A DNA stretch of 64,000 nucleotides from Succinivibrio sp. (lineage in GTDB: Bacteria; Pseudomonadota; Gammaproteobacteria; Enterobacterales; Succinivibrionaceae). The position numbers and the translations under genes were made by a program. The stretch is taken from positions 5,361 through 69,360 of the forward strand of contig JBJEWY010000071.1 in NCBI GenBank assembly GCA_051885305.1. The letters run 5' to 3'. Under the pieces are notes generated by a model. It did not search any database. It saw only the letters and a program-made list of their open reading frames with translations, and had not been told where the DNA came from. Position 1 is the first letter of the stretch; each line of letters opens with the position of its first letter. This document shows positions 39,801-44,765 of the stretch, piece by piece.

Positions 39801-40474
39801 TCACCAATGGTAAGAATATTGCCCTTACCATCACCAAAAATCTGTACTTCAATATGACGGGCGTGCTCAATGAATTTTTCTAAGAATACACCACCGGTAC
39901 TAAAGTTACTCTGAGCTAAATGCTTTACTTTTTCAAAAGCCTCAGATAGTTCTTCAGCACTGTAACAGCGCTGCATACCAATACCGCCACCACCTGCGGT
40001 ACTTTTGAGCATAACAGGGTAACCAATCTTATCGGCATTCTCTAATGCCTCATCTGCAGTCTCCAGTAAAGATGTGCCAGGAGGAAGAGGGACCCCCGCC
40101 TTCTGAGCAATGGCTCTTGCTTCATGTTTCAGACCAAAGGAAATCATCTGTTCACTGGTTGGTCCTAAGAATACGACACCTTCCTTCTCGCAAAACCTTA
40201 CAAAATCAGGGTTTTCACTTAAGAAACCATAACCAGGATGAATAGCCTGTGCACCTGATTTCTTTACAATATCTATGATTTTCTGCTGGTCAAGATAGGT
40301 ATAACAAACAGCACCTTCACCTAAAGAATAGCTCTCGTCAGCCATTTGCACATGAAGACTGTCACGATCAGCCTCATTGTAGACAGCAACTGATTTAATT
40401 CCCATTTCTCTTAAAGTGAGAATAATACGGCAAGCAATTGCTCCGCGGTTGGCAATCAATACTTTTGAAAACAT
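36866..40474 (-). CDS. uca: Urea/guanidine carboxylase (biotin-dependent), probably guanidine-preferring
   Basis: BC domain KVLIANRGAIA; CT motifs HPSNIHD, TTKYNPART; biotin site ESMKME; start set at ATG 40474 with an AGGA SD. Confidence 0.95.
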   Translation of the reverse strand: MFSKVLIANRGAIACRIILTLREMGIKSVAVYNEADRDSLHVQMADESYSLGEGAVCYTYLDQQKIIDIVKKSGAQAIHPGYGFLSENPDFVRFCEKEGVVFLGPTSEQMISFGLKHEARAIAQKAGVPLPPGTSLLETADEALENADKIGYPVMLKSTAGGGGIGMQRCYSAEELSEAFEKVKHLAQSNFSTGGVFLEKFIEHARHIEVQIFGDGKGNILTIGERDCSTQRRNQKVIEECPAPGLTQEVRQELQKTAVALGSIVKYRGAGTVEYVYDADAEKFYFLEVNTRLQVEHGVTEMVYGVDIVKMMLQLGCDELPDLNEISKSLKPRGHAIEARLYAEDPAKNFRPSAGTVSSVSFPKQDRKNIRIDTWIESGSIVSPLFDPMLAKVIAFDEDRLNAISKLKDTLSDSLVYGIETNQRYLINLLASDLLLQGRMLTRSLNDYKYSDTTIDILTSGTQTTIQDYPGRVGMWDVGVPPSGPFDNLSFRLANRLLNNPEDAAGLEITVSGPTLSFNCDSEIALTGAEIKATLDGCDVKMYQPLKVKAGQVLKLGKVKEGGVRAYLAVQGGFNCPLYLGSRSTFTLGMFGGHAGRALKAGDVLHISAYDSSIKSLSIDESLIPEITHEWNIRVIYGPHGAPDFFTKNDIDTLFSKEYEVHYNSSRTGIRLIGPKPEWARENGGEAGLHPSNIHDNAYAIGTIDFTGDMPILLGPDGPSLGGFVCPATIIRADLWKMGQLKAGDKVKFIPVSLDDAKALETAQLASIKDLKSVTASWSRSTYETAVIKTLSSDVTHGTDIVYRMSGEDNILVEYGPQVIDLELRFRAHVLMMELKKMNLEGIIDLTPGIRSLQVHFDSLKLDRNDLLDIMEKIEKNMPDLESITVPSRVVYLPVSWDDEQTRLAIKKYDELVRKNAPWFPSNIEFIRRINGLDSVEDVKNIIFNATYLVYGLGDVYLGAPVATPIDPRHRLVTTKYNPARTWTPENAVGIGGAYMCVYGMEGPGGYQFFGRTLQMWNRNHKTEEFQKPWLLRFFDQIRFFEVTHDELMDIRHKFLLGQYHIKIEDTQYSFAEYKKLLTDNHDEIVKAKKRQQDAFDAEYQRWVESGQVNFSAQMETVETSSEELVLEDNETAIESEISCSVWKTLVKEGDSVKEGDVVMIVESMKMEIQIAASCSGTVSRIIKGEGSAVTSGQPLMIIRED

Positions 40475-40497
40475 GATGATATTCCTATATTGTACTG

Positions 40498-40538
40498 GCA
40501 GGCCGTCCTGCAATGGTGTTTTAACGAAGCCGTCTTCG
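40498..40538 (-). ncRNA. Guanidine-II (mini-ykkC) riboswitch directly upstream of the carboxylase RBS
   Basis: Minus strand reads CGAAG-ACGG-CTTCG, 13-nt linker, GCAGG-ACGG-CCTGC, then 11 nt to the AGGA SD: two G-C-closed ACGR tetraloop hairpins. Confidence 0.88.
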
Positions 40539-40584
40539 AACCAGCTGTGATTGCTTGTTATTATTCAGCTGGAAAAGGAGTGAG

Positions 40585-44729: not shown

Positions 44730-44765
44730 AAAAAAAAAGGAGATCGGCTCATACTGCCTATCTCC
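44730..44765 (-). terminator. Riboswitch-controlled intrinsic terminator (expression platform)
   Basis: Minus strand GGAGATAGGC...GCCGATCTCC followed by T9; the 5' arm overlaps the aptamer 3' end. Confidence 0.85.

Follow-up and report, generated by a model that had tools for sequence, protein, structure and literature searches.

A probable sequence-diverged guanidine-II riboswitch inside a guanidine-I-headed operon of Succinivibrio sp.

Twin ACGG hairpins in the cgdB-carboxylase spacer

A 64,000-nucleotide stretch of a Succinivibrio sp. genome (GCA_051885305.1, contig JBJEWY010000071.1, positions 5,361 to 69,360; hereafter the window, in which all positions are counted) carries on its minus strand a guanidine operon that is headed by a guanidine-I riboswitch. 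Between cgdB, which encodes a subunit of carboxyguanidine deiminase (stop codon TAA, 40587-40585), and the guanidine carboxylase gene (ATG, 40474-40472) lies a minus-strand spacer of 110 nucleotides (nt), in which an earlier note on this DNA had placed a hidden guanidine-II riboswitch. The twin ACGG hairpins that it described, their 13-nt spacing and the 11 nt from the 3' end of the second hairpin to the AGGA motif were confirmed in the sequence, with all coordinates exact. The element and its surroundings comprise the following parts.

40538-40525, minus strand: hairpin P1 of the candidate guanidine-II element, CGAAG-ACGG-CUUCG; closing pair G-C, second pair A-U
40524-40512, minus strand: linker between P1 and P2, UUAAAACACCAUU, 13 nt; mostly kept in the congener described below
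40511-40498, minus strand: hairpin P2 of the candidate guanidine-II element, GCAGG-ACGG-CCUGC; closing pair G-C
40486-40483, minus strand: carboxylase Shine-Dalgarno (SD) sequence AGGA, 8 nt upstream of the ATG; the congener keeps AGGAA

Both stems have five base pairs (bp), both hairpins present the loop as G-ACGG-C, and the 3' end of P2 lies 23 nt from the AUG. Further upstream in the spacer, a pyrimidine tract, CTCCTTTTCC, occupies 40580-40571 of the minus strand. When both strands of the whole window were searched for G-C-closed ACGR hairpins with a stem of at least 5 bp, P1 and P2 were the only ones found. In first-order Markov simulations, a window contained 0.4 such hairpins on average, and none of 300 runs produced an adjacent pair. 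A separate 7-bp hairpin, CCAGCUG-N18-CAGCUGG (40572-40541, minus strand), stops 2 nt short of P1; the congener lacks it and has a 14-nt indel and a different small hairpin instead.

The mechanical list of open reading frames (ORFs) puts the carboxylase start at TTG 40513, which would make P2 coding sequence. However, the NCBIfam profile urea_carbox (TIGR02712) aligns with positions 1-1200 of its 1201 to residues 2-1199 of the protein that begins at ATG 40474, and homologues all align from residue 1 of this protein (MFSKVLIANRG...). In the congener, inspection of the sequence by eye revealed an in-frame TAG seven codons upstream of the ATG. As profile, homologues and congener stop all place the start there, we assign it on sequence grounds to ATG 40474 and not to TTG 40513, which bears out the earlier remark that the longer ORF hides the element.

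The operon and its guanidine-I head

The operon runs from the guanidine-I aptamer to the allophanate hydrolase gene.

44877-44763, minus strand: guanidine-I (ykkC) aptamer at the operon head; RF00442, 80.1 bits against a gathering score of 63, full model 1-107
44768-44730, minus strand: guanidine-I intrinsic terminator, from sequence and fold; stem GGAGGAGAU.GGC / GCC.AUCUCCUUU, then a U-run
44704-43628, minus strand: ATP-binding cassette (ABC) substrate-binding protein; TIGR03427, 502.7 bits; true start ATG 44704
43609-42800, minus strand: ABC permease; matches to NitT/TauT-type permeases
42792-42004, minus strand: ABC ATPase; from a profile search
41967-41236, minus strand: cgdA, carboxyguanidine deiminase subunit (family 'urea amidolyase associated protein UAAP1'); TIGR03425, 288.8 bits
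41223-40585, minus strand: cgdB, carboxyguanidine deiminase subunit (family 'urea amidolyase associated protein UAAP2'); TIGR03424, 325.2 bits
40474-36866, minus strand: guanidine ('urea') carboxylase; TIGR02712, 1834.8 bits
36861-35065, minus strand: allophanate hydrolase (atzF); NF006043, 744.4 bits

The anatomy of the locus and the terminator of its head are directly observed. The 3' end of the aptamer reaches into the 5' strand of the terminator hairpin (44768-44736), which leads into a tract of nine U; aptamer and overlapping terminator form the canonical anti-termination ON design, an architecture described in PMC12186494. This aptamer is the single guanidine-I match in the 2.1-Mb genome, whose only guanidine-II-like element likewise lies in the guanidine operon. 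Apart from the cgdB-carboxylase spacer, on whose minus strand no terminator-like site was found, the gaps between adjacent operon genes, computed from ORF coordinates, measure 4-36 nt. The start of atzF lies 4 nt past the carboxylase stop, a gap that makes translational coupling of the two genes plausible.

The ORF list also extends the substrate-binding protein, to a start at 44752 inside the guanidine-I terminator. Since the terminator occupies 44768-44730, the start is placed at ATG 44704, which is preceded by AGGAG at 7 nt and opens a signal-peptide-like N-terminus (MKNFKFVKKVMATTLAAS). Among 36 congeners searched, CgdB was present in one (G026), and the nearest other homologues, with 67-72% identity, belong to other families. 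The operon thus appears patchy in the genus, which suggests either gain by transfer or widespread loss.

The hairpin pair is conserved at orthologous junctions

A CgdB search over 60 relatives recovered five operons, one from a congener and four from other families within the order. All five related operons carry twin ACGR hairpins at the cgdB-carboxylase junction, with differing stem sequences, and the four from other families score above the RF01068 cut-off (35.1-38.9 bits). Guanidine-I lies upstream in four of the five, including the congener; the fifth contig stops before the operon head. The identity of the hairpins in the window is settled by these homologous operons, which carry the same kind of pair at the same junction.

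Comparison of the window with the congener, whose CgdB is 91% identical, showed that the block from P1 through the linker to P2 is conserved, whereas the 5' half of the spacer has diverged and contains the 14-nt indel. Within the block, P2 shows one compensatory change, from C-G to U-A, and loop 1 differs at its R position. The linker motif AAACACC(C)AU is kept in both congeners (window and L002) and resembles the weak 'cacc' of the Rfam consensus linker.

A scan of species-representative genomes yielded 80 further loci, 77 of them with a cgdB-carboxylase junction, and the hairpin pair was present in 54 of the 77. Spacers with the pair measure 69-345 nt. Among the 23 junctions without it, 21 are only 5-52 nt long, and the remaining two, of 71 and 103 nt, each have a single clear hairpin. 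In a covariance-model alignment of 74 matches, 97.5% of the cells were paired, compared with 72.6% in shuffles and 31-56% with slid partners; double-sided changes occurred in nine of the ten stem pairs, and the observed values were reached by none of 500 shuffles. This alignment is fitted to the model and hence leans towards structure, but a loop-anchored regular-expression scan, which is independent of the covariance model, agrees with the twin-hairpin structure. Orthology and covariation are direct observations.

Across 60 orthologues, the tetraloops are solely ACGA or ACGG. The linker spans 9-22 nt in 58 of them (outliers 50 and 51), the 13 nt of the window being the modal length, and the distance from the end of P2 to the start codon is 10-25 nt in 57. 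A generic intercistronic stabilizer hairpin was considered and rejected, as the ACGR loops are invariant. Together, these sequence comparisons support assignment of the window element to the guanidine-II (mini-ykkC) riboswitches, as an orthologue of the element that most proteobacterial guanidine-carboxylase operons carry between cgdB and the carboxylase gene. The 13-nt linker falls inside the 7-40 nt that define the class, and the association with guanidine genes is given by the carboxylase downstream, the surrounding cgdAB-atzF operon and the guanidine-I head.

Both sensor classes share most operons of this type

How often the two classes share an operon was surveyed, as proposed in the earlier note. 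Of the 54 loci with the internal pair, 44 have guanidine-I further upstream on that strand, according to a guanidine-I model search. For nine of the remaining ten, less than 3.7 kb of upstream sequence was available, so that both classes occur in 44 of 45 testable loci. The one testable locus without guanidine-I within 8 kb upstream is L021, an internal guanidine-II pair in a metagenome-assembled genome of the Ectothiorhodospiraceae. In 42 of the 44 loci, guanidine-I is located ∼3.6-4.0 kb before cgdB, that is, ahead of the ABC genes. The two-sensor layout is the norm among operons of this type, and the lengths of the cgdB-carboxylase junctions are bimodal. The survey thereby puts numbers to qualitative statements in the literature: 44 of 45 for the two classes, and junctions of 5-52 nt versus at least 69 nt.

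A diverged guanidine-II element and its alternatives

We consider it highly probable, by analogy with homologous operons, that the element at 40541-40498 is a functional, sequence-diverged guanidine-II riboswitch inside an operon headed by a transcriptional guanidine-I switch. This agrees with the placement of a guanidine-II element between cgdB and the carboxylase gene, under guanidine-I control, in the earlier note; orthology, covariation and published experiments on such a layout all speak for it.

Several observations weigh against this reading. In a scan of the 301-nt spacer region, RF01068 (Guanidine-II) aligned over its full model at 40541-40498, with 22.9 bits and an E value of 0.01, below the RF01068 gathering score of 32. 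The element was absent from the matches both of a whole-window Rfam scan at the gathering score and of a whole-genome RF01068 search. The Rfam check suggested in the earlier note therefore succeeded for ykkC (80.1 bits versus 63) and failed for mini-ykkC at the gathering score, with the full-model alignment in the spacer scan left standing. P1 has a folding energy of -3.5 kcal/mol against an orthologue median of -7.5, the seventh weakest of 60, and its second pair is A-U, while ∼95% of orthologues have G-C. Moreover, the window has no convincing anti-SD or P0 helix; the predicted partners of the SD vary with the folded length, and ensemble pairing of the SD region gave no consistent partner class among the orthologues.

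The 32-bit gathering score is an operational limit for annotation and not a biological feature; a score below it means that standard annotation overlooks the element. A custom covariance model, seeded from five junction elements including that of the window (a sixth, misaligned by MAFFT, was omitted), gave 49.7 bits on the window element, a value that is circular for the window, and found no second match in the genome. The A-U second pair of P1 is a compensated change that is common to the window and the congener, and the second pair of P2 is G-C. The same A-U pair occurs in three P1 hairpins and one P2 hairpin among the 60 orthologues, including the independent lineages L021 and L086, and the covariance-model alignment tallies 68 GC, three AU and one UA at this position. 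The A-U second pair in P1 and the AT-rich stems are local peculiarities of the window element. A second G-C pair under each loop is a feature of the guanidine-II consensus (PMC5558903), to which the window element conforms incompletely, with base pairing preserved at this position. Mutational data, however, showed that no pair but the closing one is invariant, covariation being tolerated at up to four stem pairs (PMC10351892), and function is for this reason likely kept despite the weak P1, possibly with a shifted response.

The best-surviving alternative, which we regard as unlikely, is that the guanidine-II riboswitch belongs to the 5' untranslated region (UTR) of a separate carboxylase-atzF transcript, started at an internal promoter at the end of cgdB. 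Two neighbouring units, each with a sensor, would then replace a switch internal to one operon; such a transcript could also coexist with read-through from the operon head. A promoter-like site, TTAACT-17-AATAAT (40588-40560, minus strand), lies ∼15 nt upstream of P1 and would fit. It matches only 9 of 12 positions, however, and promoter-like sites are about as frequent in the region as in shuffles (14 versus 12.8 +/- 3.3). No terminator follows cgdB, the junctions of 8-17 nt in Marinobacter-type operons imply that the genes are co-transcribed there, and the published homologous cluster is treated as a single operon with an internal switch (PMC12508155).

That the hairpins are a decaying relic, derived from guanidine-II but no longer responsive to guanidine, with the carboxylase translated constitutively once the operon is transcribed, appears distinctly improbable. 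The sub-threshold RF01068 score, the weak P1 with its A-U second pair and the presence of the operon in just one of the congeners searched are what decay might look like. However, neither an ACGR loop nor a G-C closing pair has been lost, and P1, linker and P2 are conserved between the window and the congener, including a compensatory change in a stem, in a spacer that has otherwise diverged. The tolerance of stem pairs beyond the closing pair for covariation (up to four; PMC10351892) and the recurrence of A-U at the second pair in L021 and L086 likewise argue for a working element. Chance hairpins, or coding sequence of a carboxylase read from TTG 40513 as the mechanical ORF list has it, are already refuted and can be set aside with near certainty, as the pair arose in none of the 300 simulations, is conserved at 54 of 77 junctions and lies outside a protein whose profile and homologues begin at ATG 40474.

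A model for control of carboxylase translation

For a functional guanidine-II riboswitch in this position, we propose the following course of events, in which ligand binding and the transcriptional and translational roles of the two switches are adopted from the literature on homologous operons. The operon would be transcribed from a promoter upstream of 44877, and a guanidine-bound guanidine-I aptamer would let RNA polymerase pass the terminator at 44768-44730. On the polycistronic RNA, each ACGG loop would bind one guanidinium and the two loops would kiss. We infer that this docking frees the ribosome-binding site 3' of P2 (AGGA 40486-40483, AUG 40474) in the window sequence and so turns carboxylase translation ON; allophanate hydrolase would follow through coupling, and possibly also through relief of Rho polarity.

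In the published model, ACGR loops bind one guanidinium each and kiss, and the rigid dimer holds the tails apart and thereby allows ribosome loading (PMC5558903). Massively parallel mutagenesis points to a P0b helix formed by the tails as the expression platform, and not to direct sequestration of the SD (PMC10351892). The earlier note had instead proposed CTCCTTTTCC as an anti-SD, which was not supported: the tract offers 4 bp with the SD, and this UCCU:AGGA helix reaches a probability of ∼0.3 only in RNA ended near +15 and falls to ∼0 once 45 nt of coding sequence are included. Nor was such pairing enriched in the 60 orthologues, where duplex energies of the 5' tail or the linker with the 3' tail were no better than those of shuffles (mean z +0.12 and +0.04). 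In the longer fold, SD and AUG pair with codons 1-3 (GGAAUAU/AUGUUUU) in a hairpin that abuts P2. This predicted imperfect hairpin (40497-40456, minus strand) also contains CAGUAC:GUAUUG, with pair probabilities of 0.55-0.78, and it could be the OFF-state structure; it is AU-rich and not conserved in the congener. Neither predicted state, UCCU:AGGA or the pairing with codons 1-3, is convincing.

In this pathway, the ATP- and biotin-consuming carboxylase is the first enzyme and CgdAB the second. As ∼4.2 kb and five genes separate the two sensors, the distal genes alone would be doubly gated. It is conceivable, although rather doubtful, that this amounts to a designed order of expression, in which guanidine-I alone governs the importer and CgdAB, and the carboxylase needs both guanidine-I read-through and guanidine-II translation. 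If so, the distal genes would respond more steeply and at a higher threshold, and the deiminase would be ready for carboxyguanidine when the carboxylase appears; the weakened P1, with its A-U second pair, would shift the threshold further in this AT-rich lineage. Separate thresholds for uptake and catabolism, as far as we infer any, would fit the published two-fold difference in dissociation constant (KD) between the two sensors.

Relation to published guanidine operons and riboswitches

The closest described system is that of Vreelandella (Halomonas) boliviensis LC1 (Nat Commun 2025, PMC12508155), which has Gd-I (guanidine-I) in the operon leader and Gd-II (guanidine-II) between cgdB and gca. 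In-line probing gave KD values of 44 +/- 9 μM for Gd-I and 93 +/- 6 μM for Gd-II, and the Gd-II element binds methylguanidine at 83 μM (PMC12508155). The authors propose that Gd-I acts on transcription and Gd-II on translation, report induction of the whole operon, regard the cluster as a single operon that contains an internal switch and raise the idea of Rho polarity (PMC12508155). The window shares with this operon the guanidine-I leader, the ABC importer genes, cgdA and cgdB, the guanidine-II element in the cgdB-gca gap, and then gca and atzF. Unlike V. boliviensis, it lacks mgdH and mgdL between gca and atzF, and its element, known from sequence only, has AT-richer stems, an A-U second pair in P1 and a score below the Rfam gathering score.

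For Raoultella, Erwinia and Klebsiella, the part of PMC12186494 that cites Sinn et al. 2021 describes guanidine-I before the importer and carboxyguanidine deiminase genes and guanidine-II before those for guanidine carboxylase and allophanate hydrolase. Two enterobacterial loci of our survey, from Dickeya (L088) and Atlantibacter (L095), have the layout of the window, which differs from the published enterobacterial loci in its genus and in its smaller, AT-rich genome. As the layout has been published (PMC12508155, PMC12186494) and is usual in such operons, the novelty that the earlier note had implied for a two-sensor operon falls away. Why two sensor classes combine is flagged as an open question in PMC12508155, and the window locus gives no new handle on it.

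The association of mini-ykkC with carboxylase genes has been known since 2007 (PMC1950547; PMC5558903). Ninety percent of mini-ykkC members lie within 33 nt of the SD (PMC1950547), a range that includes P2 of the window at 11 nt. Like the guanidine-II elements of sugE/gdx in Pseudomonas aeruginosa and Escherichia coli (PMC5558903, PMC10351892), which are translational ON switches that act through loop-loop kissing, the window element has two ACGR hairpins with G-C closing pairs and a short linker, placed just upstream of the SD. Those elements, however, lie in the 5' UTR of a monocistronic exporter gene, and their tails form a defined P0a/P0b helix, whereas the window element is intercistronic, precedes the gene of a catabolic enzyme and has no clear P0 helix. 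For guanidine-II of G. violaceus, PMC10351892 cites a Hill coefficient of 1.4. A further parallel is the 'bi-mechanism' tandem of SAM-II and SAM-V (PMC9481103), in which unrelated aptamers respond to one ligand on one mRNA, one transcriptionally and one translationally; these aptamers are adjacent in one leader, whereas the window separates its two by the distance given above.

The main import of the locus concerns annotation. The Rfam cut-off overlooks AT-rich guanidine-II members, in the window as in the congener, and together with an ORF call that swallows the element this leads to such operons being annotated as single-sensor. The element is 'hidden' solely in the AT-rich lineage in which it scores below the cut-off, and not in general.

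Other placements of the second switch

Ten loci with a short cgdB-carboxylase junction carry a guanidine-II pair upstream of cgdA instead. In eight loci (L032, L055, L072, L074, L079, L081, L096 and L098), twin ACGR hairpins were located ∼790-890 nt before the cgdB start, and the junction measured 5-52 nt. Guanidine-I was found ∼3 kb further upstream, before the ABC genes, in seven of these eight (not visible for L098). The internal switch always divides transporter from catabolic genes; what shifts is the boundary, with placement either before cgdA or between cgdB and the carboxylase gene. In five Marinobacter loci (L042, L058, L062, L066 and L069), guanidine-I directly precedes cgdA with no ABC genes between, and the cgdB-carboxylase junctions of 8-17 nt are without guanidine-II. 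A second switch seems to accompany the long form of the operon, in which the transporter genes come first.

Two Azospirillum species have guanidine-I and a guanidine-II pair in one leader before cgdA, ∼73 nt apart. This direct tandem was observed at L022:6986-7270 (Azospirillum sp. TSO35-2) and also at L059 and L102 (A. endophyticum). Guanidine-I (88.3 bits) is followed by GGCCGGG-ACGA-CCCGGCC and UGCCGGG-ACGG-CCCGGCA, the SD GGAAGGAG and a GTG start. Direct tandems are rare, with 2 among 25 guanidine-I sites of the family of Azospirillum; 24 of these sites came from 81 sampled genomes of the family, and A. endophyticum L102 was a manual addition. According to a review of tandem riboswitches from 2022, none of the guanidine classes had been seen in a tandem arrangement (PMC9481103). 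The guanidine-II part scores 25.2 bits with RF01068, under the Rfam cut-off, which may explain why the tandem escaped notice. In its minimum free energy (MFE) fold, a UCCUCCU tract 5' of P1 is predicted to pair with the SD and to enclose both hairpins.

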